Assembly: GCA_026393835.1 (NCBI GenBank)
Contig: JAPKZK010000020.1
Coordinates: 13,034-77,033 of the forward strand
DNA: 64,000 bases
Reading direction: 5' to 3'
DNA from: Candidatus Aminicenantes bacterium
GTDB taxonomy: Bacteria; Acidobacteriota; Aminicenantia; UBA2199
Shown: in pieces, positions 18,165 through 41,169 of the stretch
Numbering within the stretch: the stretch's first letter is position 1
Layout: every line of letters starts with the position of its first letter
Notes under the pieces: model-generated
What the model was told of the DNA's origin: nothing
The model's input: only the letters and a program-made list of their open reading frames with translations
Database searches by the model: none
Translations under genes and position numbers: made by a program

Positions 18165-18166
18165 AT

Positions 18167-18243: not shown

Positions 18244-18248
18244 TATTT

Positions 18249-20945
18249 TTAAGGTTCTTTTACTTCGAAGGGGCTTTCCAGGGAGATGGAACCCGCGGTC
18301 AATACCACCGTATATTTCCCGGGTTTGACATAAGCGGGAGCGGGTTCCTCATCTTCCTTTTTTACCTTTCCCGCTTCCGGCGGGGTCGGGGGCGTTATTA
18401 ATGCCAGATCTTGCGTCAAATCCCATACCGCACTATTCAATCCCACATCGCCGGTTCCTTTTATTTCCTTGATTATTTTACCGGAGGCGTCTTTTATCGC
18501 GAATTTCACTTCCTGGGGTTCTCTCAAATAATAATCGAAATAGGCGTCCTGCGCGCCGTACCACCCCCCCCAGTCTTCTACCGGGAGTTTCGCCGCCAGG
18601 ATATCGAACAGGTGCGCCTGTTTTGTCTTGATATCGCCGGTCAACTGCTGCAACTTGCTTACATCCATAACAAACATTCCCCGCCCATGGGTGGCGGCCA
18701 GCAAGATATTGTCCCGCGGATGAATCGCCAGGTCATGCACATACGTGGTAGGAAATTTGTCGGCCAGCGTCTGCCAATACTTACCGCCGTCGAGGGATAT
18801 ATAAACCCCCAGGTCCGTGCCCACGTACAGGATATTTTTATTCATCGGGTCTTCCCGGATCACATTCACCGGCCCACAAGGAATATTATTGGAGATATCC
18901 GTCCAGGTTTTCCCAAAATCAACGGATTTCCATACATACGCCGCAAAATCGTCATCCCGTTTGCCGTTTTGCGTCATGTAAACCGCGCCCAGGTCAAAGG
19001 CCGAAGCCTCCAATCGTGATACCCATTTGCCCTGCGGCAGCCCTTTTGTTATTTCAGCCCATGTTATCCCGCTGTCCCTGGTTACATGAACCCTGCCGTC
19101 ATCCGTTCCCACGTAGATCAACCCGAATTTCAGCGGCGATTCCGAAATGGTAAATATGGTTTGATACTGGATATCGCCCAGCTTATTCTTATCGTTGTAA
19201 GTTAAATCCGGGCTGATTTTTTCCCAGGAATCTCCGCGGTTCATGGAACGGAAGAGAAAATTCATGCCGTGGTAAAGGATGCGCGGGTTGTGGGGAGAAA
19301 GAATAAACGGCGCCAACCACTGGCCGCGCAGCGGGGGTTCGTCTTTCCCTGCCTTAGGTACAATGTTTACGCTTTTCTTTGTACTCAAATCCGTACGGAA
19401 TATCGTTCCGTAGAAATAAGCGGAATAGACGATATTGGGGTCGACGGGATCGATGGCGTGCCTGCTGCCTTCCCCACCCGGGGCTTCTTCCCATTCCTGG
19501 GCCGGGATTTGATTGCGTCCTTTGCCGAGATCCACTTTCGCCCGATAGCTGCCGTGGTCCTGGATGGAACCGTATACATAAAACGGCTCCGCCATATCAT
19601 AAGCCACAGTGAAAAATTGCACCAGTGGAAAGTTTTTAGTGAATGTTCTCCAGTTCTTGCCGCCGTCATAAGATACGGCCAGGCCGCCGTCATTGACATT
19701 TACCAGGTAATCGGTGTTGGCCGGGTCGATCCACAACCCGTGTTGGTCGAGGTGTATACCATCCAGCGTCCGGAAGGTTTCGCCCGCATCTTCGGATACA
19801 TTTAGGAAGAGTCCCATGACGTAAATTTTGTTTTCATTAAGGGGGTCTACGCGTACCTGGCCGAAAACCCAACCGTAAGTGGCGGAAAGTTGACGCATGT
19901 AATTATTATCGCGGCTCACCTGGCGCCAGTTTTGACCGCCGTTGTCGGAGCGAAATACGGTTGCGCCTTTAATCATACCTGTTTTAGGGCGACCGTAAGA
20001 ATCCGTCTCCCCTTCGGACCATTGGCCCACCACTTCGTAATTATCGATGAAAGCATAGATTACATTGGGTTTCGCCCGGCAGAGGTCGATCCCGATCCTA
20101 CCGCGGTATTTGGCGGGGGGCAGGCCGTTGTCCATGGGCAGCCAGGTTTTGCCGCCGTCCGTGGTTTTGAAGACACCGCTGCCGGTATAACCGGGGTCAT
20201 TCCTGGGGTCTTTCCATCTTTTCCGTATTCTCTGCCAGGTGGCGGCGTAGAGAGTGTCCGGGTTGGACGGGTCCATTACCAGGTCGATGACGCCGGTTTT
20301 CTCATTTATATAAAAAACCTGGGACCAGGTTTTCCCGCCATCCGTGGTTTTATAAAGGCCACGGTCCTTGTTATCGGTCCATTCATGGCCCGAAGCGGCC
20401 GCGTAAACAATATCCTGGTTTTCCGGGTGAATAATAATCCTGGGGATGGTGTGGGTTCCGGCCAGGCCCATATGCTGCCAGGTTTTACCCGCGTCTGTCG
20501 ATTTATAAACCCCGGCCCCGGCCATGGAACTGCGGAAAATGTTAGCCTCGCCGGTTCCTATCCATATAATATCCGGGTTGGAGGGGGCAATGGTCACATC
20601 GCCGATGGAAGTGGACGCCGCATGCTGGAAAATCGGTTCCCAGGTGACGCCCTCGTTAATGGTTTTCCAGAGACCGCCCGAAGCGCCGGCCGCATAAATG
20701 GTGTAATTTTTTCCTTTGGGGGCCACTATGGCCACATCGGTCATGCGGCCGCTGATGTTGGTGGGGCCGAGGAACTGCCAGGGGAGGTGTTTGAACATGG
20801 ATTTCTCTTTCATGGCCGCGTGGTCCTCGTACCATTTCAGTCGCTGGGCCGGTTCTGTGGCCGGGCTTAAAAAAATCGCCGTTAGAATGAGTAGTATCAT
20901 CATAAAGTTCATGCGTAAAATGTTTTTGTTTGACGATAAGGTCAT
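18249..20945 (-). CDS. Secreted sortilin/VPS10-type BNR-repeat beta-propeller protein, paralogue 2
   Basis: The ORF track gives 18249..21065. I prefer the ATG at 20945 (MTLSSNKNILRMNFMMILLILTAIFLSP signal peptide), which is preceded by GGAGGT. Repeated Asp-box motifs are present (STDAGKTW, TTDGGKTW, SDNGGQNW, SYDGGKNW, SVDFGKTW, SLDGGKYW). Confidence 0.75.
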   Translation of the reverse strand: MTLSSNKNILRMNFMMILLILTAIFLSPATEPAQRLKWYEDHAAMKEKSMFKHLPWQFLGPTNISGRMTDVAIVAPKGKNYTIYAAGASGGLWKTINEGVTWEPIFQHAASTSIGDVTIAPSNPDIIWIGTGEANIFRSSMAGAGVYKSTDAGKTWQHMGLAGTHTIPRIIIHPENQDIVYAAASGHEWTDNKDRGLYKTTDGGKTWSQVFYINEKTGVIDLVMDPSNPDTLYAATWQRIRKRWKDPRNDPGYTGSGVFKTTDGGKTWLPMDNGLPPAKYRGRIGIDLCRAKPNVIYAFIDNYEVVGQWSEGETDSYGRPKTGMIKGATVFRSDNGGQNWRQVSRDNNYMRQLSATYGWVFGQVRVDPLNENKIYVMGLFLNVSEDAGETFRTLDGIHLDQHGLWIDPANTDYLVNVNDGGLAVSYDGGKNWRTFTKNFPLVQFFTVAYDMAEPFYVYGSIQDHGSYRAKVDLGKGRNQIPAQEWEEAPGGEGSRHAIDPVDPNIVYSAYFYGTIFRTDLSTKKSVNIVPKAGKDEPPLRGQWLAPFILSPHNPRILYHGMNFLFRSMNRGDSWEKISPDLTYNDKNKLGDIQYQTIFTISESPLKFGLIYVGTDDGRVHVTRDSGITWAEITKGLPQGKWVSRLEASAFDLGAVYMTQNGKRDDDFAAYVWKSVDFGKTWTDISNNIPCGPVNVIREDPMNKNILYVGTDLGVYISLDGGKYWQTLADKFPTTYVHDLAIHPRDNILLAATHGRGMFVMDVSKLQQLTGDIKTKQAHLFDILAAKLPVEDWGGWYGAQDAYFDYYLREPQEVKFAIKDASGKIIKEIKGTGDVGLNSAVWDLTQDLALITPPTPPEAGKVKKEDEEPAPAYVKPGKYTVVLTAGSISLESPFEVKEP

Positions 20946-21064
20946 GGTGTTACCTCCGTTATATATAATTGGAATCTTCGTGCCTTTGGGGCTATTTTCT
21001 AGGTAGCCCAGGATATCTTGTAACATCAAAATTCTCAACCAAATTTGCTTTTGCTTGAATTTCA

Positions 21065-21295
21065 TTATTTCTTATCCAGGTTCATATAGTAGCTCAATTC
21101 TCCATCGGAAATAAATTTATCGGATTGGTCAACCACAGATGCTATTTCAATATCGAAATCCGTTGCGATTGCATCCGGTAAGGAAACAACCACTTTGTAT
21201 ATTGCTTTGGGCGTGGCGTATTCTTTAGGGCAGGATAAATGGCCGTCCTTTAACAACTGAGATTCAAATATTACTTCATGCATGTCAACCTCCAC
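21065..21295 (-). CDS. Small hypothetical protein (76 aa)
   Basis: ORF only, with no motif recognised. It lies between the NACHT gene and the BNR paralogue. Confidence 0.35.
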   Translation of the reverse strand: MEVDMHEVIFESQLLKDGHLSCPKEYATPKAIYKVVVSLPDAIATDFDIEIASVVDQSDKFISDGELSYYMNLDKK

Positions 21296-21459
21296 ATATT
21301 ATGATAGGTTTATTGAAAAGATTTGTCAAGTCCGCGCCGCGAGTACGCAGGCGTCAAACTATTAAGTAGTCAAATGATCAAAATACAAATGACTAATACA
21401 AAAAAACCGTCCGCGAAATAGGCGAAAAACAAAAATGAAAAGTGCAAAAGACCGGGTTA

Positions 21460-24159
21460 TCATGAATGGGTGCGAAGAACACGAAAACCGATCACATCGT
21501 ACAGGTAATCGGGGCCGCCGTTGCTGCGGGCAGCGCAACGCATATTATGTGCGCCATCATACCACGAACCGCCGCGAAGCGCATACCAATTATTCGCTGC
21601 ATCATAATAATTGTCCATCCATTCCCAGGCATTGCCGGCCATGTCCATTAAACCTTCGGGTGTGGCGCCTTCGGGGCAGTGCCCCACGGGAGTGGAGGCC
21701 CCGACATTTTTATTGTAATTGGCCAGGTTGGGGTTGGGTTCACCTTTGTATGCCGGCCAGGGATATTTACGCAGTGATCCGCCGGGTTCCCTACCGGCAG
21801 CCGCCCATTCCCATTCTTTTTCCGTGGGCAGCCTGTAAATAGATGCAAGCTGATGGATATCCGGATTTTCAATATCTCCCCTCATGGCAATATCCAGGCA
21901 GGAAAGCCAGAAACAATAAGCACGGGCCGCATACCAGCTTACCGCAACCACCGGTTGATCGTCATCATAAAATTTTTTATCATCATCCAGCCTGGAAGGG
22001 AGTTTAACCTGCCATTCCGTGAAGTTTTCGCCCAGGAATGCGGTATAACCTTTTATGGGCGTCGCAAATTTCAGGAGCCGCTGCGCAAATATTTCCAGTG
22101 GAAGAATTTCTAATAGTTCTTTTTCACGGCCTGCAAGGAAAGAGATGAAGCGCCGGTACCGTTTATTGGTAACCGGGTATTTGCATAAATAGAATCCCGG
22201 GATATTTTCTATTCTACCTGTAACTGAAAATTTATAGACGCCGCCGGGGATATTGATATATTCGACATTGTCTTCAAATGGATTACGAAAAGAGGATTGC
22301 ACAAGGCTCCCTTCGGGTTGTATTTGTTTCTTCAACTCTTGGAACCGGGGAGACGCTTCGGTGATGATATCATCGGCGTACGCCCGATTAACTTTATTCC
22401 AATTTTCATTATTCGCTGTTTCGATGGTCTGTATGGCTTCTGGGGTCCCGATGGTTTTTAAACAGTCCAATACATAACGTCTCTGGTTATTGTTTATTCG
22501 ATCGCTGTTTAAATATTCCTTCAGCGCATCAATTTTTTTCTGGGGGGCTTCCTTGATTAAAAGCTGCAATAAGTTTTGCTGATGGTCGTTCAGTTCCTTA
22601 CTAATATCGGCCTGGAAAAATAAATACATGAATCGATTGAAAATGTTATCATCAGACTCGTTGAAGAAAAAGCGTAGCGTTTCCGTCCACCAATCTTCGC
22701 CAAAATCGTGGATTAAAGCCTCCAAAAAGCCGGTTTCATAAGCTAACTTTCGCAATTCCTGTGCTGCCAGGAATTCCCGGAAGGATTTATGGCGAAAAGC
22801 ATAATAGTCTTTGCTGTGATCGACAATCAAGCCCACGCGGTCCCGTAAATACACACAAAATTCATCAGCCCACGGTGGACTGTTCAATTTATCTAGATAT
22901 TGCTGCATAAATTTATGCATCTCTTCTTTTAAAACCTCATTACTGCGTACTCCCATCTGCATCCAAAGGGCGACGGGAGTCAAAATACTACGTGATTCAT
23001 CAGCGGAAAGCAACGGACCAATCTCCTTTTGCCGGTCGCGATATTCCAGCAAATAGTTCAAGGACGCATCATATAAGTCCGACCGGGTTTCAGGTAAATA
23101 CCGGCGCTCCTTCCAGAGTATGGCCATAATATGCAGCAGCATGGGAACAGCGGCCAATTCTCGCACCGCTTTATTTTCTTCTTTTTTCAAAAAAGAAATA
23201 ATAATCTGCGATTGCCAGTCTGCCTTTTTAATTTGCTGTTCTTTCCATTTTTCCACCGACATATCCGGCGGGGGTAATTGGGTTGAAAAAGCCGCCCGGA
23301 ACCATTTTTTTAAAAATTCGTCCTGCTGTTGTGAAGAAAAATCCATAATATCTACCCGAAAATGGGGCATTTCCAATTCAATGCCGTCTTGCTTGCGGTA
23401 GCCGGCAGCGCGTGAAGTAACCACAAACTGCGTATTCCCCAATATTGAACAAAGATTTCCAAACCAGCGGCACACCTTTCGACGCCTTTCTTTACTGCCG
23501 ATTTCATCCAGCCCGTCCAGCAGCACCAGGGTGTTGTCATCGTCAAGCAACCCGGAAAAAAAATTCTTAGAGAAATTCAATAAACGTCTATCAAACCATT
23601 TTTCCAGGTTCACCGGTATAGATACCGGTTCATCATTTTCATCAAATTCCAATTCTCGCAGGGGAAAGTAAAGAGGAATTATCTTTCTTTCAAATCCCAA
23701 CCGTTTCCATTCTTCAGCGGTTTTATCAAGGCAGGCCAGTGCGTAATACTTCAATAGGGTGGTTTTCCCGGATCCCGGATCCCCGATAATCAGCAGCGGC
23801 TTGTGCTGATTAAAAGCCCTATTCAAGGCATCTTCGGGCGATAAAGGGGGTTCTTCTTCATAAATTCCCATGCCATCACGATTCTTAGAGCCATCGAATC
23901 GATCTTCACTACGCCGGGACACTGAGATACGCAACGAAACAAATGCGTCCTGAAGCCCGACAATCGAACTTTCTATATCCGGTGAACCCAATAAATGAAT
24001 CGTTCCCAGTTCCCTCTTCAGGGCTGTTGAGTACTTTTCTTGTTCTTGTTTTATTCCTTTTTTTGTTTCTTTATTGAGGCGAACAAATATGTAAATAATA
24101 TATCCCAAAATGGCAATACAAAATAAAGCTAATAATGTAAACGCAACTTCTACCGACAT
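21460..24159 (-). CDS. STAND NTPase: N-terminal TM helix, NACHT domain and C-terminal formylglycine-generating-enzyme (FGE/SUMF1)-like domain
   Basis: 899 aa with a TM helix (aa ~5-27), Walker A IIGDPGSGKTTLLKY, Walker B LVLLDGLDE, and a C-terminus YRLPTEKEWEWAAAG...GNAWEWMDNYY...LRGGSW...RCAARS...IGFRVLR, the FGE-sulfatase signature. Confidence 0.8.
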   Translation of the reverse strand: MSVEVAFTLLALFCIAILGYIIYIFVRLNKETKKGIKQEQEKYSTALKRELGTIHLLGSPDIESSIVGLQDAFVSLRISVSRRSEDRFDGSKNRDGMGIYEEEPPLSPEDALNRAFNQHKPLLIIGDPGSGKTTLLKYYALACLDKTAEEWKRLGFERKIIPLYFPLRELEFDENDEPVSIPVNLEKWFDRRLLNFSKNFFSGLLDDDNTLVLLDGLDEIGSKERRRKVCRWFGNLCSILGNTQFVVTSRAAGYRKQDGIELEMPHFRVDIMDFSSQQQDEFLKKWFRAAFSTQLPPPDMSVEKWKEQQIKKADWQSQIIISFLKKEENKAVRELAAVPMLLHIMAILWKERRYLPETRSDLYDASLNYLLEYRDRQKEIGPLLSADESRSILTPVALWMQMGVRSNEVLKEEMHKFMQQYLDKLNSPPWADEFCVYLRDRVGLIVDHSKDYYAFRHKSFREFLAAQELRKLAYETGFLEALIHDFGEDWWTETLRFFFNESDDNIFNRFMYLFFQADISKELNDHQQNLLQLLIKEAPQKKIDALKEYLNSDRINNNQRRYVLDCLKTIGTPEAIQTIETANNENWNKVNRAYADDIITEASPRFQELKKQIQPEGSLVQSSFRNPFEDNVEYINIPGGVYKFSVTGRIENIPGFYLCKYPVTNKRYRRFISFLAGREKELLEILPLEIFAQRLLKFATPIKGYTAFLGENFTEWQVKLPSRLDDDKKFYDDDQPVVAVSWYAARAYCFWLSCLDIAMRGDIENPDIHQLASIYRLPTEKEWEWAAAGREPGGSLRKYPWPAYKGEPNPNLANYNKNVGASTPVGHCPEGATPEGLMDMAGNAWEWMDNYYDAANNWYALRGGSWYDGAHNMRCAARSNGGPDYLYDVIGFRVLRTHS

Positions 24160-24227
24160 TGTAATACCTGCGGCGTTCCTTTAAAAGGTTTTGAACCATG
24201 AGAAAATCTTATTTTTTTCATCATTCT

Positions 24228-24256
24228 ATTGTATAGAAAATTGCTTCCTATTTCAA
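24228..24256 (-). promoter_or_regulatory. Putative sigma70 promoter for the NACHT gene
   Basis: The minus strand reads TTGAAA-17 nt-TACAAT, about 70 nt upstream of the start at 24159. Confidence 0.4.
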
Positions 24257-24273
24257 TAGGGAAAAAGGAATTG

Positions 24274-25050
24274 TTAATCCTTCGATACATATTCACCAAA
24301 CCCCGCAGCTCTAAAATAAGCTCTACGAAAACCGGCAAATCGCTTATTTGCCCTGGTATCTTCTTTAATTTTATTAAGGAATTCATTTTTTAACTCTTGA
24401 TTATTGGTATATTTAGCAAGAATTATTGTTCCAACAATGGTTTGAAAACGATCAATTAGTCCCGTCCGCTCTTCCTTAACCTCCTCCTTATTGATTGCCG
24501 TTAATTCAAAGGCAGTTTTATGACCGCGGCCTTCCTTATCCAATCCCACGGCTATAACCAAGTTTTCATTAACTTCCTGCCAGACAAACCCGATAAATTT
24601 TTCCGGGTCCTCATCAACCGGATTTATTAATACCGGTTTTTCCAGTTTCAAGTCATCTTCACCTGTGAAAGCCCTTTTACTTCCTCCCAGTAGGGGAAAT
24701 TGAGTCTTTTTGATTTCCTGGTTGCAGCTTTTGCAGGCCAGGAAAAGGTTTTCCCATTCATAGGCCAGCCACCAATAACCGGGATGTCCATTCTCATCCG
24801 ATATTCCTGCTTTGGGCCGGAAATGCTCCACATCGAATTCCCGTTTATCCCGTTTACGTTCACAATAGCAGCATTTACCATCATGCCATTGCCAGAGATA
24901 TTCCTTGATATCGTGCCAGTGTGGTTCAAAATCCGCGGATTTTAAGTTAATTCCGGCTTTAATCATATTTTCGATTTGCTTTTTGGTATCCTCGACTTTT
25001 TTTGATTTCAATGATTCGGGTATAGGGGGCCGTGTTCTTAGTCTAATCAT
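24274..25050 (-). CDS. HNH endonuclease of the PtuB / TIGR02646-like type (Septu-like partner)
   Basis: 258 aa. GKCCYCERKR..FDVEHFRPKA...WENLFLACKSCNQ..K gives CxxC...H...N...CxxC. There is an 8-nt overlap with the upstream ATPase gene. Confidence 0.75.
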   Translation of the reverse strand: MIRLRTRPPIPESLKSKKVEDTKKQIENMIKAGINLKSADFEPHWHDIKEYLWQWHDGKCCYCERKRDKREFDVEHFRPKAGISDENGHPGYWWLAYEWENLFLACKSCNQEIKKTQFPLLGGSKRAFTGEDDLKLEKPVLINPVDEDPEKFIGFVWQEVNENLVIAVGLDKEGRGHKTAFELTAINKEEVKEERTGLIDRFQTIVGTIILAKYTNNQELKNEFLNKIKEDTRANKRFAGFRRAYFRAAGFGEYVSKD

Positions 25051-27376
25051 GTTCGTTTTTTGGGGTTGTTAATTGCTCGAGATTTTTCAACATCTTCTCC
25101 AGCCGCTGCTGCATCAGCCGGGTTTCAGCGTCTTCGGCCGCCCCGGGCAAGGTTTTTTCCAGTAACTCGCCTAATCCTTTAAATTCCTCTTCTTCTTGCT
25201 GCGTACGGGATCCTTTTAGATAGAGGGTCCCGAGTCTTTCCAGCTTTTCTGCTGTTTCCGGGTTGCGTGTGGTGGGCAGTTCAAACGCCTCCGATGTCAG
25301 GATTTGATCGGCCCTCAACCCACGCAGAGAAAAAATTGGGACTAATTCTACCGGTTCATTGGGTATCTTATGAAATCGTAATACCTGGTACTCATCATCA
25401 TCCAGGTCTGTAATACCGGCAACGCACATGGGAGAATGCGTTGCGGCAATAAATTGGATGCCGGGAAATTGTTCTTTTAACAATTGGATAATATATCGCT
25501 GCCACCGGGGATGTAAATGCTGCTCGATTTCATCCACCAGTACTATCCCGGATATCAGATTGGGGTCAAGCTGCCGGTCGTCCAGCATATTCCAGGCAAT
25601 AAGATCCAGCGCCCAGGCCGCCGTATTCTTATAACCATCTCCTTGATCTTGCAACCTGGACCGCCCCCCGGCATTAACCAATTCGATACCTCTGCCGGTT
25701 AACTCGATATGTTCCTTCCCGGTGAAAAGGAACAGTCTTTCGATTAACTTGTAGACAAGATAAAGTATTTCTTGTTCGGCCTCTCTTTCCCGGTCTTTAG
25801 GGGCCCTGCTTCGCGCTTCCAATGCCAGCAGGCTTAAACTGAGTTCCGGGCCCTGCAGGGGTTGGTCATAACGAAAAAGAGTTTCAACTGCTTCTATTAC
25901 CCTGTACTGTTCCGGTTGTTTCCTTAGTTCACTTAAAATCCGCCCGGCACCGTACCCGCAAACAAACAAAAGATGCCGGGGAAAATTCCCCGGTAATATG
26001 AGCTCGACTTCTCCGCTGTCGGAAATATAAAAATATTCCTTTCTTACCTGTTCGGAGCCATTCATCCGGTCGAAGCGGGTAACGATACGATATTGTCCTA
26101 TCCCGGGGGCATTCAACCGGATATCGATGGTTCCCGTCCGTTGGCCGTCTCGAATAAATTTTCCATGGAAATCGGCCAACAATGCCGAGGCATTAGGCTC
26201 ATCGCATATCCCCAGGATCAGGCAGCGGAGAAATGACGTTTTACCCGTGCTGTTATCTCCCAGTAAAAGGGTAAACAACGGCGTATTATTTTTTTCCGAA
26301 ATGAAACCGGCGGATAATGATTCGAACCCCTGGATATTTTCTAAACGGACCCCGGTTAGATAAAAGCTCTTTTGCTCCGATGGCGGCAAAGCGATTTTAC
26401 GCTTTGATTTGAAGGTAAAATAGAATCTTCCATCTTCGCTGTCCGGGTTGACTTCGGTGTTTTTTCTCCATTGTTCATGCTCAGGCAGGTATTTATAGAA
26501 TTGTACCGTTGTCTTACTTTTGATCAAATCGATCTCTACCAGGTTAAAGGAGTTTGGGGTTCGATGTGATGGCTCATCCATCAAATTACCGATCACAACG
26601 GCTTTACCTTTTGTCCCGGCACTGAAGGCAGCGATGGGTGTATGGGTGTGCCCGGTCATGATCATATCTGTTTTTCGCACCAGCAATTCTTTTGATACCT
26701 CATCAACCGGATGGAAAATGGAAAAAGGATGATGAAAGAAAGCAATAGAAAAATGCGCATTTTCATCTAAGGCAGCCAATGCGTTTTCCACCTGGTATAA
26801 TCCCAACGCCGGTTCTTCTTTGCCATCGATGCTGTAACCGGTGAATAAAGCGCTGTTCAGACCGACCATATTAATTTTGATCGATTGCCCCTGCTTATCA
26901 ATATCCATGGTTTCGACGAAACGGTAGGTGGTATCTGTAAATAGACGGCGCCCCATGGCCTTTTCGGCAAAGGCATTGAAAGCGGTAAATTTGCGTAAAA
27001 GTTTCGGCAAATAAAAGGAGTCGGTCAATAGTTTAGTAATGTCATCCTGGTTTTCAAATGAATACAAACGTTCAATATCTATATCCGAGATTTTTTCCCG
27101 TCGATTAATATCATGATTCCCCGGCACGATAAAAAGACGTTGCGCAGGTAAACCGGTAACGGTTAGAAGTTTCTCGCAAAATGATTCCGCTTCCTTATAT
27201 TCTTCCTCTTTGCCACTGGATGCAATGTCGCCGGAAATAATAATGAAATCAATAAGTTTCTCCCGGGCAACCAGATCTTTGATGGCGTCCAGCATGGAAC
27301 GGGTAACGATGTCCCCGGTTTTTCCCGGGTTGGCGCGCAACTGGAGATCGGATAAGTGAAGATAGCAAAGTTTCAT
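25043..27376 (-). CDS. Fusion of a calcineurin-like metallophosphoesterase (aa ~1-290) and an ABC/SMC-like AAA ATPase (aa ~340-720; PtuA/OLD-ATPase-like)
   Basis: 777 aa. MPE motifs are HLSDLQL, SGDIASSG, VPGNHD, FFHHP and TGHTH. ATPase motifs are LLGDNSTGKTSFLR (Walker A), GDGYKN (signature-like), VLVDEIEQHLHP (Walker B / D-loop) and ATHSP (H-loop). Confidence 0.8.
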   Translation of the reverse strand: MKLCYLHLSDLQLRANPGKTGDIVTRSMLDAIKDLVAREKLIDFIIISGDIASSGKEEEYKEAESFCEKLLTVTGLPAQRLFIVPGNHDINRREKISDIDIERLYSFENQDDITKLLTDSFYLPKLLRKFTAFNAFAEKAMGRRLFTDTTYRFVETMDIDKQGQSIKINMVGLNSALFTGYSIDGKEEPALGLYQVENALAALDENAHFSIAFFHHPFSIFHPVDEVSKELLVRKTDMIMTGHTHTPIAAFSAGTKGKAVVIGNLMDEPSHRTPNSFNLVEIDLIKSKTTVQFYKYLPEHEQWRKNTEVNPDSEDGRFYFTFKSKRKIALPPSEQKSFYLTGVRLENIQGFESLSAGFISEKNNTPLFTLLLGDNSTGKTSFLRCLILGICDEPNASALLADFHGKFIRDGQRTGTIDIRLNAPGIGQYRIVTRFDRMNGSEQVRKEYFYISDSGEVELILPGNFPRHLLFVCGYGAGRILSELRKQPEQYRVIEAVETLFRYDQPLQGPELSLSLLALEARSRAPKDREREAEQEILYLVYKLIERLFLFTGKEHIELTGRGIELVNAGGRSRLQDQGDGYKNTAAWALDLIAWNMLDDRQLDPNLISGIVLVDEIEQHLHPRWQRYIIQLLKEQFPGIQFIAATHSPMCVAGITDLDDDEYQVLRFHKIPNEPVELVPIFSLRGLRADQILTSEAFELPTTRNPETAEKLERLGTLYLKGSRTQQEEEEFKGLGELLEKTLPGAAEDAETRLMQQRLEKMLKNLEQLTTPKNEHD

Positions 27377-29118
27377 TTTTTTCCTTTTCCTGTTTTTTTT
27401 CCTGTTTTTTTTTCTTCTTTTTTAGTTTCGGCGGCTTCCCATTTTTTCAATTCGACTTTTCCCTCGGTGCCGATGTAATAGGTGTCGGTATCGCGGCTGG
27501 TAATTTCAGGCATTCTCAATATCCGCGGCGTGATGCTTAATAATATATCGGTGCGTTCGCTGTTCTTGGTGTTGGAGGAAAATATCTCTTTGAGAATCGG
27601 CAGCCGGTTTAAGAAGGGAATACCGGTGACGCCGCTGCTGCTGGTTCCTTTCATCAGCCCCGCGATGATACCCGTCTCCCCGTCCCTCAAGCGTAATTTT
27701 GTCGTTACTTTACGGCTTCCCAATGTGGGCGGCACATAGTTACTTCCCATATCGATCACGTTGGTTAACTCGAATTGCAGTTCCATGGTGACTTCCCGGT
27801 TGGAATGGACGACAGGGGTAAGAGTTATGGATATACCCACATCGGTCATGGCAAAGGAAGTAATGGGCTGCTGGTTGACGCCGCCGCTGGCAATGGGGAC
27901 AAAAGTGGTCCTGGGGATGGGGCGCTGCTCGCCCAATTGAACGGTTATTTTTTCTTTGTCCAGGCCCCTTATTTTAGGTTGGGCCAATATTTTCGAATCC
28001 GTGATGGATGAGTAAAACTTCCAGACCATTTGCGGCACCGACATGATGATGTCGCTGGAACTGATATTATCGATTTCATTGACATTGATCCCGGAATCGG
28101 TTCCTTCGACCTTTGCGCCCACCTGCCAGGACGAAAGTTCTGCGCCATATTCACTCAATTTTTTGTTGTTGACTTCCAATATTTCGATTTCCACTTCGAT
28201 TTCTGCTTTTCTTTTATCGATAAATTGGGCTAACTTTTCAACCAATAGCAGGTTTTCCAGGGAATCGGTGACAACCAGGGAATTGGTCAGGTCATTTAAG
28301 GTCATTTGTTCGGGTTTGAAAGTTTTCTCGATGATCTTTTTGGCGTCTTCGGCGCCGACATTGGCAAAATAGATATTCTTTATCAATAGCTTTTTGTAAC
28401 GTTTAGCGCTGTCCCCGGTGTTCAGCGCGATGACGATGTTCTTATCATCCAGGATATAATAGCTGCATTTATAAATCCGGCAGATATGTTCCAGGGCTTC
28501 ATGAAATGTCACATCCAGGAGTTTCAGGGTTACCCGTATGTCTTTAAATTCAGAGTCGAAAAGAATGTTCACATCTCCTGTTTTTGCTAAAACCCCGAAT
28601 ATAGCCATCAGGCTTGTAGGGGATTTGAATTCCAGGTCCAGGCGTTCCTGGCTTTTCATTATTGCCGGCAGTCCGGTGTTGATTTCTACCTCTTTTTTTA
28701 ACTCCTCGATGGGTTTAACCGCTAGTTCACCCCGGCCAAGTTCCAGCAAGTTTTTTCTTACTTCGCTGTTGCCGGGGTCGAATTGGAGGGATTTTTTATA
28801 GAGAAAGAGCGCTTTGGTTTTATTGCCGGCCTCTTCTTCAGCTTTGCCCGCTTGAAAATAATAAATAGAAGCCTCTTTCAATACCCGGTCGATCTCGACT
28901 TTTAGGGCGATGCGTTTTGGGTGGGATTTTAGGGCTTTGAAATAGTATGTCAGGGCTTCTTCGTATTGTTTATTTTTTTTAAGAAACTCCGCCCGTTTGA
29001 GATGGTGGCCGGTACACCCGGGGAAAAGAAGGGGGATGATGACCAGGCCGGCAAGAAAAAGTAAAAGCGCCCGCTTCCCATGAAAAAACTTTGTATAGTT
29101 CCTATTGTTCATTCTCAT
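27373..29118 (-). CDS. Orphan secretin-family outer-membrane protein with lipoprotein signal and N-terminal TPR repeats
   Basis: 581 aa with LLFPGC (lipobox), TPR-like helices, a Secretin_N-like module (...VVTDSLENLLLVEKLAQFIDK) and a C-terminal secretin core (GETGIIAGL...GIPFLNRLPILKEIF....TDILLSITPRIL). The ATGA stop/start overlaps the downstream MPE-ATPase gene. Confidence 0.8.
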   Translation of the reverse strand: MRMNNRNYTKFFHGKRALLLFLAGLVIIPLLFPGCTGHHLKRAEFLKKNKQYEEALTYYFKALKSHPKRIALKVEIDRVLKEASIYYFQAGKAEEEAGNKTKALFLYKKSLQFDPGNSEVRKNLLELGRGELAVKPIEELKKEVEINTGLPAIMKSQERLDLEFKSPTSLMAIFGVLAKTGDVNILFDSEFKDIRVTLKLLDVTFHEALEHICRIYKCSYYILDDKNIVIALNTGDSAKRYKKLLIKNIYFANVGAEDAKKIIEKTFKPEQMTLNDLTNSLVVTDSLENLLLVEKLAQFIDKRKAEIEVEIEILEVNNKKLSEYGAELSSWQVGAKVEGTDSGINVNEIDNISSSDIIMSVPQMVWKFYSSITDSKILAQPKIRGLDKEKITVQLGEQRPIPRTTFVPIASGGVNQQPITSFAMTDVGISITLTPVVHSNREVTMELQFELTNVIDMGSNYVPPTLGSRKVTTKLRLRDGETGIIAGLMKGTSSSGVTGIPFLNRLPILKEIFSSNTKNSERTDILLSITPRILRMPEITSRDTDTYYIGTEGKVELKKWEAAETKKEEKKTGKKTGKGKK

Positions 29119-29171
29119 GTGTTATCTTCAAAGAGATAAGAAGTATAACACAAGTTGGAAGTTTTTAAAAG
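29066..29171. repeat. Direct repeat copy 1 (106 bp): the first 17-18 codons of the secretin gene plus 53 nt upstream
   Basis: 101/106 identical to 35741..35846 by manual alignment. Confidence 0.9.
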
Positions 29172-29221
29172 GATTTTACTGGTCCCAGGGCGAAACTCGC
29201 ATCATGATGAACTACCATGAG

Positions 29222-29432
29222 CAAAAAAGGATAAATCGACGACCTAAAAGGACAGGGCGACTTCAAAAAAGGATCAACATACGCTAAAATAAGATCAACA
29301 TTCAATAAAATAAGATCAACACACAAGAGCGATGGACAAAAATTCACTAAAAAAAGATAAAAAAACGCTGAGAATGGGCAAACGGAGATCAAGAAAAGAT
29401 AAACAAGCAGACAGAAAGGGTAATTGCCGATC
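29222..29432. repeat. 21-bp-phased degenerate array, about 10 units, A-tract-leading orientation (aaaaGGAtcaacat...)
   Basis: The anchor RG dinucleotide that follows each A-run recurs at 29230, 29251, 29272, 29293, 29314, 29335, 29356, 29377, 29398 and 29419, which is an exact 21-nt period. Confidence 0.8.
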
Positions 29433-29460
29433 ATTGACAGGCTATATGTTTGTCCCTCTG

Positions 29461-29670
29461 GCGTCGATGATGCCCCTATTGGTGTGATTGATGACCTTAT
29501 TTGCATCGATGATGACCTTATTCCAGTGAACAATGACCTTTTTTTTCGGTTGATTTATCCTCGTCGCCTATCCATTAACCTTTTTTGGTTATAGGTTAAT
29601 CTTTTTCAATGAGATGTTTGTCCTTTTTGCCGCATCGATTACCTTTTGCATTGGTTTGTTCCAGTTCGCC
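29461..29670. repeat. 21-bp-phased degenerate array, about 10 units, in inverted orientation relative to 29222..29432
   Basis: tgatgMcc anchors occur at 29468, 29489, 29510 and 29531, then units decay at a 20-22 nt period. The reverse complement of the unit tgcatcgatgatgaccttatt (aataaggtcatcatcgatgca) matches the forward units (aaaaaggatcaacatacgct). Confidence 0.7.
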
Positions 29671-29842
29671 AACCGGTTTTCGTATCTCCCGGGAGTGCCC
29701 AGGTCGTTGAGAAATTCCACGCTTCATAAAAACGAGAGAATTCATTTATAGCAAAATTCACAAGAATATCTTATCCAAAAACTTCCCCCATTCGTTTCCA
29801 TTTTTTGACGGCATATTCCGGCTGATTAACTTAAAAACAAAA

Positions 29843-30163
29843 TCATGCCCCCGAACTCTGGTAAATGATTTCGCCTGTGCTCAGGATTTCCTCGAAAAAA
29901 CCAGACAGGTCTTTATGATCTCTTTCGATTAAAACCGGCTCGATCCTGCAATCGATATCAGTTCCAAGTTTGAATAATTGTTGCCTGGATTTGAGGTAAT
30001 CTTTATCATTATGATCGACGACAACAGCCACATCGATATCGCTGTGTTCCCTACCGCAATTTTTGGCATATGAGCCGAATAGTATCACCATGCGAACCGG
30101 GAAGTTTTTTTTTACTACTTCCGCATATTTTTTTACTTTGCTTATAACTTCTGCTTTATCCAT
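29843..30163 (-). CDS. Nucleotidyltransferase (MNT-type) antitoxin-like protein
   Basis: 106 aa with the minimal NTase motif ILFGSYAKN...SDIDVAVVV. It overlaps the upstream HEPN gene. Confidence 0.8.
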   Translation of the reverse strand: MDKAEVISKVKKYAEVVKKNFPVRMVILFGSYAKNCGREHSDIDVAVVVDHNDKDYLKSRQQLFKLGTDIDCRIEPVLIERDHKDLSGFFEEILSTGEIIYQSSGA

Positions 30164-30534
30164 AGCTGGAATTCCTTTGTTTGAGTTAAAATGTCACGGC
30201 ATCTTTCCTGGTTTAAAATTTGATTGATACGCTCTTTATAGGAAGGATACCTGGCTTCGACATTTAAAGGCCGGATTAGATTGATGAAATCTTTTTGATC
30301 GTCGGATAGTTCCTCCGATATACCCACTTCCCTTGTCAATGACGTTAAATTGTGTGAATAGGGAGGAGTGGATTTTAGGGTTGAAACATATAATGCTTTA
30401 AGAATTTTTTCAATTACCTGGTGGCACATGAAGCCAACATATAAAAATCGTTTGCTTTCGAGCATGACCTGGGCGGTTTCCAGATCGTAATCGGATAATT
30501 CTACCCAATAGATAATTTTTTCCTCTATTTCCAT
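30142..30534 (-). CDS. HEPN domain protein (toxin-like partner of MNT)
   Basis: 130 aa. A..DL..A..ML, CHQVIEKILKAL, HNL and EARYP are typical of HEPN. Confidence 0.75.
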   Translation of the reverse strand: MEIEEKIIYWVELSDYDLETAQVMLESKRFLYVGFMCHQVIEKILKALYVSTLKSTPPYSHNLTSLTREVGISEELSDDQKDFINLIRPLNVEARYPSYKERINQILNQERCRDILTQTKEFQLWIKQKL

Positions 30535-30616
30535 AGAGGTATTATATTATGAAATTCTTTATTTTTCAATAAGGAGACTCGATTCGGCAGACACTGTCTA
30601 ACTTGCTATTTTAAAA

Positions 30617-31888
30617 TCATTTCTTGCCCAGGATAATATCCGGTACTTGCGGCAGGGCCAACCATTGGGCAAATTTGTTATAGGTCCGGCCAACTTTTTG
30701 CGCCAACTCCACCCCTTTTTTTGTTCCTTCCAATATCTTGCTAAACTTTGAATCTTTATCGCCCATCTTCTCCAATAAACGGCCTAATTTATTTAACGGT
30801 TTGGCCAGTTCCTTTTCCTTCGCTTTCATGGTTAACCCATCCAGGCCGTCTTCGACTTTTGCCAATTCCGCCAATTCCTTTTCCAGGGCCGGGACAAGGG
30901 TGTCGAAACCTTCGTTGTTTTTGCAGGAGACGCGGTAAAAGCTTTTAAGGTTGGGGTATTTATCTTGCAGGAATTTACGATTCAGCTCGAAACCCGGGTT
31001 TGCATCGGTTTTGTTGATGACCACCAGCACCGGGGAGTGGCCGCCGAAGCTTTCGATGTGTTTAAGCCAGTATTCGGTTTTTTCATCCTTGCGGCCGTCC
31101 AGTACCAGGAGGTAAAGGCTGCGTTTGGACAGGAAGAATTGGTGGGTGGCGTGCATGATTTCCTGGCCGCCGAAATCCCAGAGATGGGCTTTGATGGTTT
31201 TGCCGTCTTGTTTAACGGTCCAGGGTTTGATATTAATGCCGTGGGTTTGGGGTTCGCCGATATTAAAGTCCAGGCCCAGGAGGCGATTGACCAGGGAGGT
31301 TTTACCGGCGGCGCCGTCGCCCACCAGCAGGACTTTGACTTCATTTAACGGCAGGGTATCTTCCTTTAAGGAATCGAAATAAGCCTTTATGGCAGTTTTG
31401 CCCTGTTTAATAATCTCCAGCGGCGGTTTTTCCAGGGGGTTGCCGTAGAGATTCAAGCTGTAAAAAGATAAATCATCTTTCCACTCCATTGCCATGCCGG
31501 GCCACAAGGAGGTGAAATCGGGAGAAAGTTCTCGGATGAGATTTTTGTGGACATCCAATGTTGTTAAATGCTTCAATTCCCTCAGCGGCGTGAGGTCGGC
31601 GATTTGATTGTTACTTAAATAAAGCTCTGTCAGGTTCGACAGGGCCATCAGCGGCATGAGGTCCGTGATTTGATTACTACTTAAATACAGATGGGTTAAG
31701 CCGCTTAAACTCCTTAGAAACGAAATATCTTTAATTTCTCTGTTATCCAGGTTCACCCCCTGCACCTGCCCCGTTTTATCCAGGGCATAGCCATTTTCAA
31801 TCCCCCATATTCCCTCAAGCGGACGTGGTTTTAATTTTCCCCCGGTTAGCTTCTCGATCTTTCTTATAATCTCCATATCATGGGCCAT
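30617..31888 (-). CDS. Leucine-rich-repeat plus Roc/Ras-like small GTPase protein (Roco-like, no recognisable COR domain)
   Basis: 423 aa. There are LRRs (LTHLYLSSNQITDL, LTELYLSNNQIADL, LTTLDVHKNLI) and a GTPase module with G1 LVGDGAAGKTSL, G3 WDFGGQE and G4 INKTD. The ~80-aa helical, lysine-rich tail is shorter than any COR domain. Confidence 0.75.
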   Translation of the reverse strand: MAHDMEIIRKIEKLTGGKLKPRPLEGIWGIENGYALDKTGQVQGVNLDNREIKDISFLRSLSGLTHLYLSSNQITDLMPLMALSNLTELYLSNNQIADLTPLRELKHLTTLDVHKNLIRELSPDFTSLWPGMAMEWKDDLSFYSLNLYGNPLEKPPLEIIKQGKTAIKAYFDSLKEDTLPLNEVKVLLVGDGAAGKTSLVNRLLGLDFNIGEPQTHGINIKPWTVKQDGKTIKAHLWDFGGQEIMHATHQFFLSKRSLYLLVLDGRKDEKTEYWLKHIESFGGHSPVLVVINKTDANPGFELNRKFLQDKYPNLKSFYRVSCKNNEGFDTLVPALEKELAELAKVEDGLDGLTMKAKEKELAKPLNKLGRLLEKMGDKDSKFSKILEGTKKGVELAQKVGRTYNKFAQWLALPQVPDIILGKK

Positions 31889-32055
31889 ATGATCTCCTTA
31901 GGAGTTGTAATGAAATAAATTGATCGTTTTAGCATTCGGAATTTTTCCCTCAAATCAAGGGCAAATTTCAAGAACAATTCAGACCATTCGGTACAATAAA
32001 GGTATTCTTGCGATGTTTTTTGCCTTTCATACGGCCTTTTTAAGTATCCTTAACC

Positions 32056-32202
32056 GGTGGGAATGTCATTTTCAGTGGTGGGCAGATCGTTTTCATTGGC
32101 GGGAATGTCATTTTCAGCGGTGGGCAGATTGTTTTCATTGGTGGGAATGTCATTTTCAGTGGTGGGCAGATCGTTTTCATTGGTGGGAATGTCATTTTCA
32201 TG
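32056..32202. repeat. Tandem array of seven 21-bp sub-units alternating between two types (ggtgggaatgtcattttcagt / ggtgggcagatcgttttcatt), i.e. 3.5 copies of a 42-bp unit
   Basis: Near-perfect copies when read directly. Degenerate T-tract units continue upstream to about 32008. The ORF 31920..32303 (WECHFQW/WADRFHW heptads) is probably an artefact of the period. Confidence 0.9.
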
Positions 32203-32437
32203 AGTTAGAATGTTATTTCCCGGGTGAAAAATGGCGTAAACTGAAGATTTTTCCCGTCAAAAGGTTGAAAGGAATGATTCTCATGGAAAACAAGACTATA
32301 TGATTTGTTCCAAAAGGCAGCGAAAATGATCCAGTTATTTCATTACAATGCCTTATCGCTTTAAATGGGCGTTGAAACCGCGTTACAAGTTACAAGTTTC
32401 AATAATCAATCATACCACAGCAGGGAAATAAAAGAAA

Positions 32438-32637
32438 GAATGATGAATGATGAATGATGATAGGTGAGTGGTAGAGTGGTGGAGTAGTAGAATGGTAAAA
32501 AAAAATCTGTGTTAATCTGTGTAATCTGTGGACACATCTTTCTCTCCTTACTCGTGGGCTGTTTTTGTTTTGAATTTTGAGCTTTTGAATTTTGAATTTG
32601 TTTCGAATTTCGAGTTTCGGATTTCGGATTTTTTTCA
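32438..32637. repeat. Composite simple-repeat block
   Basis: Read directly: (gaatgat)x3 plus decayed 7-mers at 32438..32500, aatctgtg x3 at 32504..32531, and ttttgaa/tttcgag/tttcgga 7-mers at 32562..32637. The overlapping ORFs 32399..32648 look spurious. Confidence 0.8.
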
Positions 32638-32769
32638 AATCCTGCCAAAAAATGTCAGGATTTCACGGGTTATTAATTAGTGACATTCTGGATATGCATA
32701 AAAAATGTTCTTGTTTACGGTCGCCATAGTGTTGGATTAACGGTAACACATCGGTGGGGAATTTAATCT

Positions 32770-33753
32770 TTAAGCCTTCTTCTTTAACTCTTTTACGGCT
32801 AGATCAAAATCAGAAATCATATTCTTACTTCGTTCAGCCCTATATTTTTCAAATTCATCTTCAGTTTTTTGGGCAGCGGTTTCGGCGCTCACATTCCCGG
32901 CGTGGGTCAACAGTTCTTTTTCACTCAGCTTCAAAAAAGCATCCAATTTGGCAATCCAATCGTTCATTTTCATCAAGCGGCCGTTGGTTGCCTGCAATTC
33001 GGCAAAATCAAGATACAGCGAAACAATCAGGTTGAGTTGATGCAACTCTTTTTCCGTTAGGTAGTTCTTGGCAATTTTTGCATCCTGCGCGGTAATATAG
33101 TTACCTTTAAAGTTTACCAGCCCCATCAGGGGCTTTGTGCTATCGGCGCGGCTTACAATCATCTGGGCGGCGGTTTGGCCGTGCACGGCATAATGCATTT
33201 TGTTCTGGACCGTCGCAAAGAAGGTTTTTGTCAACGCATCGTCGCTTCGATAATCAATGCTGGTGGCATAAATATCGGTTACTTTCTGGTAAAAATTACG
33301 CTCGCTGCTTCGTATATCACGGATGCGCTGTAATAATTCTTGAAAATAACGCGCCTTTTGTCCACCCTGTTTTAAGCGCTCATCATCTAAGGTAAAACCT
33401 TTTATGATGTATTCCTTAATTCTTTGGGTTGCCCAGCTACGGAACTGGGTGCCCTGGACTGATTTAACGCGGTAGCCAACAGAAATTATGACATCCAGAT
33501 TATAGAAATTGGTTGGCTTGGTAGAAAATTCGGAAATTCCGAATTTTCTCATGGTTGATTCTTCTGTAAGTTCTTGCTCTTCATATACATTTTTTATATG
33601 TTCGTTAATCGTTGACTTTGACTTTCCATATAAATCCGCCATTTGATCTTGTGTCAGCCAGACCGTCTCATCTTCCAAACGAACTTCCAATTTTGTCTGC
33701 CCGTTTTTTCCCTGGTAAATAATAATTTGTGACTCGTTTCCCGGGGTCTTCAT
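32770..33753 (-). CDS. RhuM-family virulence/Fic-associated protein
   Basis: 327 aa. IIIYQGKNGQTKLEVRLEDETVWLTQDQMADLYGKSKSTINEHIKN...NLDVIISVGYRVKS..GTQFR.WAT is highly characteristic of RhuM. Confidence 0.8.
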   Translation of the reverse strand: MKTPGNESQIIIYQGKNGQTKLEVRLEDETVWLTQDQMADLYGKSKSTINEHIKNVYEEQELTEESTMRKFGISEFSTKPTNFYNLDVIISVGYRVKSVQGTQFRSWATQRIKEYIIKGFTLDDERLKQGGQKARYFQELLQRIRDIRSSERNFYQKVTDIYATSIDYRSDDALTKTFFATVQNKMHYAVHGQTAAQMIVSRADSTKPLMGLVNFKGNYITAQDAKIAKNYLTEKELHQLNLIVSLYLDFAELQATNGRLMKMNDWIAKLDAFLKLSEKELLTHAGNVSAETAAQKTEDEFEKYRAERSKNMISDFDLAVKELKKKA

Positions 33754-33951
33754 TCTACTTCCTCCGCTTCAATCAAGCTATTCCTGACTTTTTTCTTCAT
33801 GGGCATAGTATTATATTGCAAATCCTGTTTTTTTGCAACTCTCGAAAAACCTCCCGGAACTTTTGCTAATCAAAAGGGCTTTCCGAACGCCCCGACGCGG
33901 GGGAGGTTTTTAAGAATTGAATTTATTCCTATTTTGCGGTATTATTATCCC

Positions 33952-35670: not shown

Positions 35671-35740
35671 AATTCACCATCATTTTGTTTCCGGGAGGCC
35701 AGGGCCTTTTTACTAATACCTCAAAAAGGGAATTTTCCTT

Positions 35741-35864: not shown

Positions 35865-36383
35865 TCAGGGCGTCTTACTCAGGAGGGTAAAGGTAACCAA
35901 CAATTTGGCTTTATTCTTTTTGGAACCCTGGATTATTAAATAACCCTTTTCCGGCATTTGTGGGGTGGCGCCGACATTGTCCAGGGGCATATCCGAACGT
36001 CTATCCGCTTGATCAGCCAGGAGATAAATATCTTTGAAATCCGGGATCGAATCGAAGAAAACGCCATCTTTGCCATCCTTTTGTAGAACCGGTTTATATT
36101 TGCCAAGATTGGCCAACATTTTTTGAGCTTCGGTGCGCAATTCGATCTTTACTTCTTCTTTAATAGCAAACTTTTCCAGCTCTTGTTTGATGGGGGTCAT
36201 GTCCAACCGGAACGGTTTCACCGGTTCATTGGAAGGGGGGGCATTATTAACCTTCAGGTTCGTCAGCATATTGCTGTTTTGCAGGAGTTCCCAGGGGTTC
36301 TGGTTCTCGTCCGCGGGTTGCGCCAATCCACAAATACCGGCAGTTAAAATGGTGATAAATAATAATAAATTGAATCGTTTCAT
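35865..36383 (-). CDS. Secreted hypothetical protein
   Basis: ORF 35865..36410. The ATG at 36383 (MKRFNLLLFITILTAGICGLA signal peptide) is preceded by GGAGGA. No family recognised. Confidence 0.55.
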   Translation of the reverse strand: MKRFNLLLFITILTAGICGLAQPADENQNPWELLQNSNMLTNLKVNNAPPSNEPVKPFRLDMTPIKQELEKFAIKEEVKIELRTEAQKMLANLGKYKPVLQKDGKDGVFFDSIPDFKDIYLLADQADRRSDMPLDNVGATPQMPEKGYLIIQGSKKNKAKLLVTFTLLSKTP

Positions 36384-40599: not shown

Positions 40600-41169
40600 A
40601 TGAAAATGAAAGTATTTTTATTCGGTATATTATTGGCAGCGGCGCTGGTTGCACTCAGCGGGTTGAGCGGACTGGCCCAGGAAAAACAGCCGCCCCAGGA
40701 GAAAAATAAAAAAACCACTACCCAGGAAGTCGATGTTGAGGAACAAAAAGTTGAAACCGATGCAAACCTGGAATCGACCGAGAGTATGGATGAGGATTCG
40801 GAAATGGGGACGGATACAGGAGAATTTGTTTACAGGCCAAAGGGCAGACGGGACCCATTCTGGGACTTGCTGATGGGCAAAAGCACCAAGGTGAAAAAAG
40901 AAGCCAAAGAAGGGATCGCGGGCCTGGAAATCGAACAATTGGAACTGGAAGGGATCGTTAACCGGAATGGCAAGTATATCGCATTATTCAAAGGGCCCGA
41001 CAGTAAACCCTATGATGTCCAGATCGGGCAAAGCGTCTATGACGGTGAAATTATCGAAATAAATGCCAATAGTGTGGTTTTTAAAAAAATATTAACCATT
41101 GCCCTGGGGGGCACCAAAGAAAAAACAGTTATCAAATGGTTAAATCCTGAAAAGGAGAAAGAACAATGA
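40600..41169 (+). CDS. pilP: PilP-like pilus assembly protein
   Basis: 189 aa with a signal peptide, an RDPFWDLL motif and a C-terminal beta domain (LEGIVNRNGKYIALFKG...VYDGEIIEINANSVVF). Confidence 0.7.
   Translation: MKMKVFLFGILLAAALVALSGLSGLAQEKQPPQEKNKKTTTQEVDVEEQKVETDANLESTESMDEDSEMGTDTGEFVYRPKGRRDPFWDLLMGKSTKVKKEAKEGIAGLEIEQLELEGIVNRNGKYIALFKGPDSKPYDVQIGQSVYDGEIIEINANSVVFKKILTIALGGTKEKTVIKWLNPEKEKEQ

Follow-up and report, generated by a model that had tools for sequence, protein, structure and literature searches.

Whether an outer membrane secretin and an antiphage nuclease work together as one system, or have come to lie side by side by chance, is the question raised by a 64,000-nucleotide (nt) stretch of DNA, here called the window, from “Candidatus Aminicenantes bacterium” (GenBank assembly GCA_026393835.1, contig JAPKZK010000020.1, positions 13,034 to 77,033 of the forward strand). 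On its minus strand, the gene for a 581-amino-acid (aa) secretin that is also a lipoprotein with tetratricopeptide repeats (TPRs) (27373..29118) overlaps the start of a gene for a 777-aa metallophosphoesterase (MPE)-PtuA fusion (25043..27376), which in turn overlaps the gene for a 258-aa PtuB HNH nuclease (24274..25050), the latter two forming a pair of the Septu type. A first-pass annotation, made from the sequence alone, had offered two explanations: either a defense cassette was inserted exactly where the secretin gene ends, or the three proteins are functionally linked. Its open reading frames (ORFs), the ATGA shared at 27373-27376, and the 8-nt overlap at 25043-25050 are all correct in detail. 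The first explanation is strongly supported by relatives that lack the cassette, by the junctions, and by recurrence of the cassette elsewhere. The reading preferred here, with a probability of about 0.9, is that a three-gene antiphage cassette was inserted between the secretin gene and its native BNR partner in the lineage of the window.

The Secretin Locus in Close Relatives

Four independent close relatives carry a secretin 90 to 92% identical to that of the window, in DNA of approximately 86 to 91% identity: L001 (GCA_040961635.1), L088 and L103 (the same record, GCA_030837085.1), and L101 and L102 (two Logan runs). Their gene order is PUA-methyltransferase, a 172-aa secreted protein (absent in L101), secretin, and BNR/Sortilin-Vps10 protein, and the distance from the secretin stop to the BNR start is 4 nt in L101, L102, and L103 and 115 nt in L001. 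The window possesses a homologous BNR gene on the minus strand (18249..20945; 898 aa from the ATG at 20945, with a signal peptide and a Pfam Sortilin-Vps10 match of 1.6e-32), whose product is 87 to 88% identical to that of the gene after the secretin in all four relatives. Between it and the secretin gene lie 6,418 bp (20959..27376, insertion A), which are absent from all close relatives and were delimited by blastn against L001, L003, and L004 and by junction alignments. In the comparison with L001, homology covers the BNR gene (18160-20958), the secretin gene (27397-29174), and the gene of the 172-aa protein (35747-36509). Judged by this gene order, the BNR gene is the native downstream partner of the secretin in the window lineage and has been displaced by 6.4 kb. 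The first-pass annotation was correct about the three overlapping genes and missed both this displaced partner and a third cassette gene, which encodes an 899-aa STAND NTPase with NACHT and FGE-sulfatase domains (NACHT-FGE; 21460..24159, minus strand) and lies beyond the interval that the annotation described.

Junctions of the Insertion

Homology with the relatives ends at 27377/27397 and restarts at 20958, 13 nt upstream of the BNR ATG, and insertion A thus delimited runs from secretin codon 581 to the BNR ribosome-binding site. At the left junction, host homology continues through ...ACAGGAAAAGGAAAAAA and ends in an A run just before the ptuA ATG; at the right junction, it restarts at CGGAGGTAA, which is the BNR ribosome-binding site. 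The minus strand reads GGAAAAGGAAAAAAATGAAACTT at the secretin/ptuA junction, where the secretin TGA and the ptuA ATG share the ATGA, and GAACATGATTAGAC at the ptuA/ptuB junction, where the ptuA stop TAG and the ptuB ATG overlap within the 8 nt ATGATTAG. The 4-nt ATGA overlap belongs to a common class of gene overlap.

The origin of the secretin stop codon is indicated by relatives of the cassette. The cassettes of L005, L008, L100, L006, and L099 open with ATGAAACTTCG, preceded by unrelated DNA, and the ptuA start is ATGAAACTT in these five and in L106 and ATGAAA in L007; the most distant relative, L009, alone differs. Because the closer cassette relatives carry the same conserved start after unrelated DNA, the ATGA is intrinsic to the cassette. 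The lysine-rich C-terminal tail of the secretin is 1 to 9 residues shorter in the window than in the closest orthologues, and its TGA stop is, on this comparison, supplied by the conserved ATGAAA start of the cassette. Any upstream ORF would be terminated by this cassette TGA if it came in on the matching frame, one of three.

Recurrence of the Cassette

The same trio, MPE-PtuA with overlapping PtuB and then NACHT-FGE, occurs in L005/L008, L100, L105, L106, and L006, where PtuA is 71, 70, 69, 67, and 63% identical to that of the window, respectively. PtuB and NACHT-FGE are separated by approximately 100 to 250 nt in these loci, usually by approximately 100 to 115 nt and by more in L106. Nucleotide homology between the window and L005 and L006 extends from the PtuA ATG (27376) to the NACHT-FGE stop (21461 and 21458) at 65 to 75% identity. 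No secretin occurs at any of these loci, and their flanks differ in every case, with AraC plus ExbBD, a TIR protein, TumE, and PIN-MazE among them. The trio has been kept together in six independent contexts, the window included, at 54 to 71% protein identity.

The reverse history, in which the relatives lost the cassette by clean deletion from an ancestral order of secretin, Septu pair, NACHT-FGE, and BNR, is very unlikely. Deletions of defense genes are frequent, and the secretin-BNR spacer varies among the relatives (115 versus 4 nt). However, such a history requires the cassette to have been excised precisely, at least once before the four relatives diverged or else several times independently, and in each case with recovery of a longer secretin tail that the relatives share by homology. 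Distant secretin orthologues likewise lack the cassette, and the cassette is found at unrelated loci.

A functional link between the secretin and the Septu pair should leave a recurrent association. No secretin was found in any of 87 PtuA-relative loci (85 totaling 690 kb, with L105 and L106 added later) by tblastn with the window’s two secretins and by a hidden Markov model (HMM) built from the listed secretin homologues of more than 400 aa. One marginal HMM match (L005, E = 7e-4) proved to be a Lactamase_B-TPR protein, the match falling in its TPR region. Conversely, neither PtuA nor PtuB was found in 17 secretin-orthologue loci (39 to 92% identity to the window secretin), and no PADLOC defense model matched the secretin. 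The first-pass annotation had stated that a fortuitous juxtaposition would be indicated if homologues of the ATPase-HNH pair never adjoined secretins and if the secretin orthologues lay in conventional secretion or pilus operons; the former is what was found, and the latter is not the case. On these comparisons, the association is unique to the window genome and fortuitous. The juxtaposition is explained by insertion of a cassette inside an operon.

It is therefore highly improbable that the secretin and the Septu pair act together as a functional system of three proteins, in which, for instance, the ATPase-nuclease would watch the outer membrane channel for entry of phage or DNA. In its favor, the ATGA overlap and the lack of a ptuA promoter-like site make coexpression likely, and the secretin lies outside any conventional operon for a type II secretion system (T2SS), type IV pilus (T4P), or Tad pilus. 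Against it, the association was seen once, in the window, and at none of the loci in the two sets above, the closest relatives have the secretin followed after a 4-nt gap by BNR, and the cassette stands as a unit elsewhere without a secretin. That the juxtaposition is a metagenome assembly chimera at an A-rich run is scarcely credible: the left junction does lie in low-complexity sequence (GGAAAAGGAAAAAAA) and an uncultured genome is the apparent source of the window, but after 6.4 kb the sequence rejoins the syntenic BNR gene in the right orientation and exactly at the ribosome-binding site, two compensating misjoins would be needed, and the A run is far shorter than assembler k-mers.

Several observations weigh against insertion of a mobile cassette. 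No integrase or other mobility gene, flanking repeat, or target duplication was found for insertion A, and a left junction that falls exactly at a start codon is remarkably tidy. Neither insertion A nor the second insertion described below stands out as foreign by GC content or tetranucleotide distance; the GC content of insertion A is 0.441, compared with approximately 0.45 to 0.46 in the flanks, and a distance as large or larger is seen for 30% of random core chunks. All of the comparison genomes are metagenome assemblies, and both cotranscription and translational coupling are deduced from sequence alone. Insertion A is not an integrase-mediated island of the kind recognized by an integrase, a tRNA or att site, and flanking repeats, and there are no tRNA genes in the window to serve as integration targets. 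Plasmid and phage collections contained no full-length MPE-PtuA, and the ATPase half alone was matched, at no more than 31% identity in plasmids; therefore, no plasmid or phage vehicle can be named.

Expression of the Inserted Genes

Insertion of the cassette most likely proceeded as follows. A mobile cassette of MPE-PtuA, PtuB, and NACHT-FGE entered the short space between the secretin and BNR genes. Sequence comparison shows that the left breakpoint lies in the A-rich, lysine-codon tail of the secretin gene, exactly at the cassette start codon, and that the ATGAAA of the cassette thereby gives the secretin a new in-frame TGA. The ptuA and ptuB genes would now be read through from the secretin promoter, a putative case of promoter capture. 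Selection may have tolerated this capture because neither flanking gene is disrupted.

Promoter-like sites were sought by a scan for the sigma-70 consensus, which is weak evidence in an uncultured organism. Such sites are found upstream of the secretin (29169-29142, inside a 109-nt repeat), upstream of NACHT-FGE (24256-24228), and upstream of a 72-aa ORF at the right end of insertion A (21329-21301, a strong site with an 11-of-12 match), and the scan found none directly upstream of ptuA. Because neither intergenic DNA nor a promoter-like site is left upstream of ptuA, ptuA and ptuB are probably transcribed by read-through from the secretin promoter. For translation, the secretin Gly-Lys codons (AAGGAAAAAA) place an AAGGA approximately 5 to 6 nt before the ptuA ATG, and this could act as the ptuA Shine-Dalgarno sequence.

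The last approximately 500 bp of insertion A hold a terminator-like hairpin after the NACHT-FGE stop (21426-21410), the 11-of-12 promoter-like site, and the 72-aa ORF (21065..21283, minus strand), which had no family match. The promoter-like site at 21329-21301 may now drive the displaced BNR gene.

A Metallophosphoesterase-Fused Septu Variant

The Septu-like character that the first-pass annotation assigned to the ATPase-HNH pair is borne out by PADLOC (PtuA, 9.4e-54 over residues 334 to 756; PtuB, 7.5e-54). In MPE-PtuA, a DS-8-type metallophosphoesterase (approximately residues 1 to 320) is fused to a PtuA ABC-type ATPase (approximately residues 335 to 770). The corresponding matches are Metallophos (3.2e-11, residues 6 to 247), AAA_21 (2e-15), and AAA_15 (1.2e-10) in Pfam; an MPE effector model (1.3e-31) and PDC-S60 (1e-27) in PADLOC; and DS8_antiphage (3.2e-32) and PtuA (2e-30) in NCBIfam, both of the latter below the curated cutoffs. 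The DS8 score of 111 bits, against a cutoff of 790 bits, denotes homology at the domain level only.

Across 11 homologues, the ATPase keeps Walker A (G373 to K379, with G373, D374, N375, G378, and K379), Walker B (D615-E616), and H647 without change. In the metallophosphoesterase, the GD (49-50), GNHD (86-89), HH (215-216), and GHTH (242-245) motifs are conserved and D10 is nearly invariant, while the His of motif I (DxH) is replaced by Gln in the window, at a position that is not conserved in the family. PtuB has invariant C60, C63, H76, N101, C106, C109, and N110 (HNH plus zinc finger, CxxC...H...N...CxxC) and a Pfam HNH match of 2.7e-5. PtuA chains in the PDB match the ATPase part of MPE-PtuA, and a sequence search of the PDB gave no match for PtuB. 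For the ATPase C-lobe and the HNH gene, retron PtuA and PtuB are the top sequence matches in the PDB and NCBIfam.

By its PtuA ATPase and an immediately downstream, same-strand PtuB HNH gene, the window pair is of the Septu type as judged from sequence. Its gene order (ptuA-ptuB with overlapping stop and start), its ABC-type ATPase with Walker A, Walker B, and H-loop, and its PtuB HNH with CxxC...CxxC are those of Septu type I (Doron et al. 2018; PtuAB structures, e.g., PDB 8EE4). In contrast to type I, however, the window PtuA carries an extra N-terminal metallophosphoesterase of approximately 320 aa, a NACHT-FGE STAND gene always follows in its close cassette relatives, and both PtuA and PtuB score far below the NCBIfam equivalog cutoffs. 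By these features, the extra domain and the third conserved gene, the system is a variant rather than canonical type I Septu.

In characterized Septu and retron I-A PtuAB, the PtuB nuclease cleaves tRNA-Tyr on infection (PMC12640716, PMC13096335). The window C-lobe and HNH gene best match the retron PtuA and PtuB of retron I-A (Ec78/Eco7, Ec83), but the window locus lacks a reverse transcriptase, and no Rfam family, retron noncoding RNAs included, was found in the 18- to 38-kb region. By analogy, the window PtuA should oligomerize and regulate the PtuB nuclease. As in other Septu systems, a PtuA oligomer would hold and license the PtuB HNH nuclease, which would cleave nucleic acid on infection, and the DS-8-type metallophosphoesterase on PtuA would be an additional effector domain; the secretin would have no role in defense.

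DS-8 is a single-protein metallophosphatase-NACHT defense system in which the metallophosphatase catalytic residues are required (DefensePredictor, bioRxiv 10.1101/2025.01.08.631726). The window MPE domain is homologous to those of DS-8 and PADLOC PDC-S60 (the 3.2e-32 and 1e-27 matches above), but it lies on PtuA rather than on a STAND NTPase, and in the neighboring NACHT-FGE protein a transmembrane helix stands where DS-8 has its metallophosphoesterase. The domain is also 45 to 50% identical to the N-terminal metallophosphoesterase of many MPE-NACHT-FGE proteins, a likeness that suggests exchange of effector domains between STAND and Septu systems.

The complete fusion is rare. Full-length MPE-PtuA was represented by about a dozen proteins in a search of 5.8 billion, and among 1.84 billion representative proteins (50%-identity clusters) only four clusters covered the whole fused profile. 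The searchable literature yielded nothing relevant on a Septu-metallophosphoesterase fusion or on secretins in defense islands.

The NACHT-FGE Companion

The NACHT-FGE protein (Pfam NACHT, 2.3e-11; FGE-sulfatase, 1.3e-36) lacks a metallophosphoesterase and any recognizable enzymatic effector domain and has an N-terminal hydrophobic helix predicted to act as a membrane anchor. It belongs to a large family rich in paralogues in Aminicenantes, with >1,000 homologues at E values of ≤1e-30; approximately 100 of those listed are 50 to 66% identical to the window protein. STAND NTPases with FGE-sulfatase sensor domains have been described as defense associated (Nature 2026, PMC13581612). The window protein shares their NACHT and C-terminal FGE-sulfatase domains and their large Aminicenantes paralogue family, but it differs in having no recognizable enzymatic effector, in its predicted membrane anchor, and in its linkage to MPE-PtuA/PtuB in this sublineage. 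NACHT-FGE always follows MPE-PtuA/PtuB where PtuA identity to the window is ≥63%.

MPE-PtuA, PtuB, and the membrane-anchored, effector-less NACHT-FGE protein may tentatively be viewed as one three-component immune system in which the STAND sensor licenses the Septu ATPase-nuclease, although this is doubtful. Conservation of the trio in six contexts counts for this proposal, as does the finding that the three closest NACHT-FGE homologues, recovered in an independent search, all lie within MPE-PtuA/PtuB trios. Counting against it, more distant MPE-PtuA/PtuB pairs occur without a NACHT gene (L099, 53%; L007, 42%; L009, 38% PtuA identity), NACHT-FGE proteins form a huge family whose members mostly stand alone, and the NACHT-FGE gene of the window has its own promoter-like site. 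Such a system would resemble DS-8 with the effector domain moved onto the neighboring PtuA.

The Secretin and Its Native Neighborhood

The window secretin is a host core gene product with a Pfam Secretin domain (PF00263, 7.9e-31, residues 372 to 535), TPRs, and a lipobox (G34-C35) that is invariant among orthologues. Its secretin domain aligns with GspD, PilQ, and RcpA structures (PDB chains), and the protein scores far below the cutoff of every NCBIfam secretin equivalog. It is 90 to 92% identical to homologues P0001 to P0004, and its family is found mainly in metagenome genomes of Aminicenantes/Acidobacteriota.

The “orphan” label given to the secretin by the first-pass annotation holds, as its orthologues are outside conventional T2SS, T4P, and Tad operons: no platform, ATPase, or pilin genes of these systems adjoin any of the secretin orthologues examined. 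The separate pilQ that was noted at 41166 is a true PilQ with AMIN, N0, and Secretin domains (41166..43640), and the pilMNOPQ cluster near the secretin, which includes it, is divergently oriented. More distant secretin orthologues lie among paralogues with Peptidase_S74 domains (L002, L089, L093, L094, and L096) or adjoin Big_1 Ig-like proteins (L091 and L092).

Self-piloting lipidated secretins, such as HxcQ, are known, and the TPR-lipoprotein pilotins of PilQ are PilF, PilW, and Tgl. The window protein is like these in joining a lipobox cysteine, TPRs, and a C-terminal secretin domain, but its operon is without T2SS, T4P, or Tad partners, and the neighbors in the family are BNR/Sortilin, Peptidase_S74, or Big_1 proteins. 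Throughout the TPR-lipoprotein secretin family (L002, L089, L091 to L096, and L101 to L103), neighbors are always predicted surface or exported proteins and never secretion machinery. This suggests that the Aminicenantes protein is a stand-alone secretin with dedicated cargo.

Other Rearrangements around the Secretin

A second insertion of approximately 6.6 kb (29175..35740, insertion B), delimited by blastn, separates the secretin gene from its native upstream neighbor, the gene of the 172-aa conserved secreted protein (35865..36383, minus strand), which was identified through the close relatives. By Pfam, the genes of insertion B encode a HEPN/MNT pair, an LRR-Roc GTPase, RhuM, and an AAA-ATPase_like/PDDEXK_9 protein. 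The two copies of a 109-nt direct repeat (29066-29174 and 35741-35849; 94% identity) flank insertion B, and the repeat comprises the promoter region of the secretin gene together with 53 nt from the start of its coding sequence; despite this repeat, no integrase was found in insertion B, and the window contains no tRNA gene. Accessory insertions on both sides of the secretin mark this locus as a hotspot for insertion.

The LRR-Roc and RhuM genes are separated by a tandem array (32035-32221) of approximately nine 21-nt units, alternating GGTGGGAATGTCATTTTCAGT and GGTGGGCAGATCGTTTTCATT, and the ORF that crosses this array is unconvincing as a gene. On the other side of the locus, a DUF362 gene (16725-18164, in a region spanning 16716-18159) lies between a GT2 glycosyltransferase gene and BNR. 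The DUF362 gene is missing from the corresponding position in L001 and therefore represents a third indel in a 20-kb stretch. The window also has two paralogous AAA-ATPase_like/PDDEXK_9 genes (33799-35670 and 56046-57791), and in L001 the orthologue of the latter is separated from the secretin by only approximately 4 kb, suggesting that the window genome and L001 differ by further rearrangement.

Biological Significance

A secretin wired to an antiphage nuclease would, if true, have amounted to envelope-coupled immunity of a new class, but the data show the arrangement to be an insertion scar and the idea should be dropped. The locus instead offers a clean, base-resolved case of a defense cassette placed inside an operon, where it appears to have captured the host promoter and ribosome-binding context while leaving the flanking genes intact. 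What remains new is modest: a rare Septu architecture in which a DS-8-type metallophosphoesterase is fused to PtuA and travels with a conserved NACHT-FGE STAND companion gene. For Aminicenantes, the locus also draws attention to a family of TPR-lipoprotein secretins whose constant neighbors are genes for surface proteins rather than for secretion machinery.

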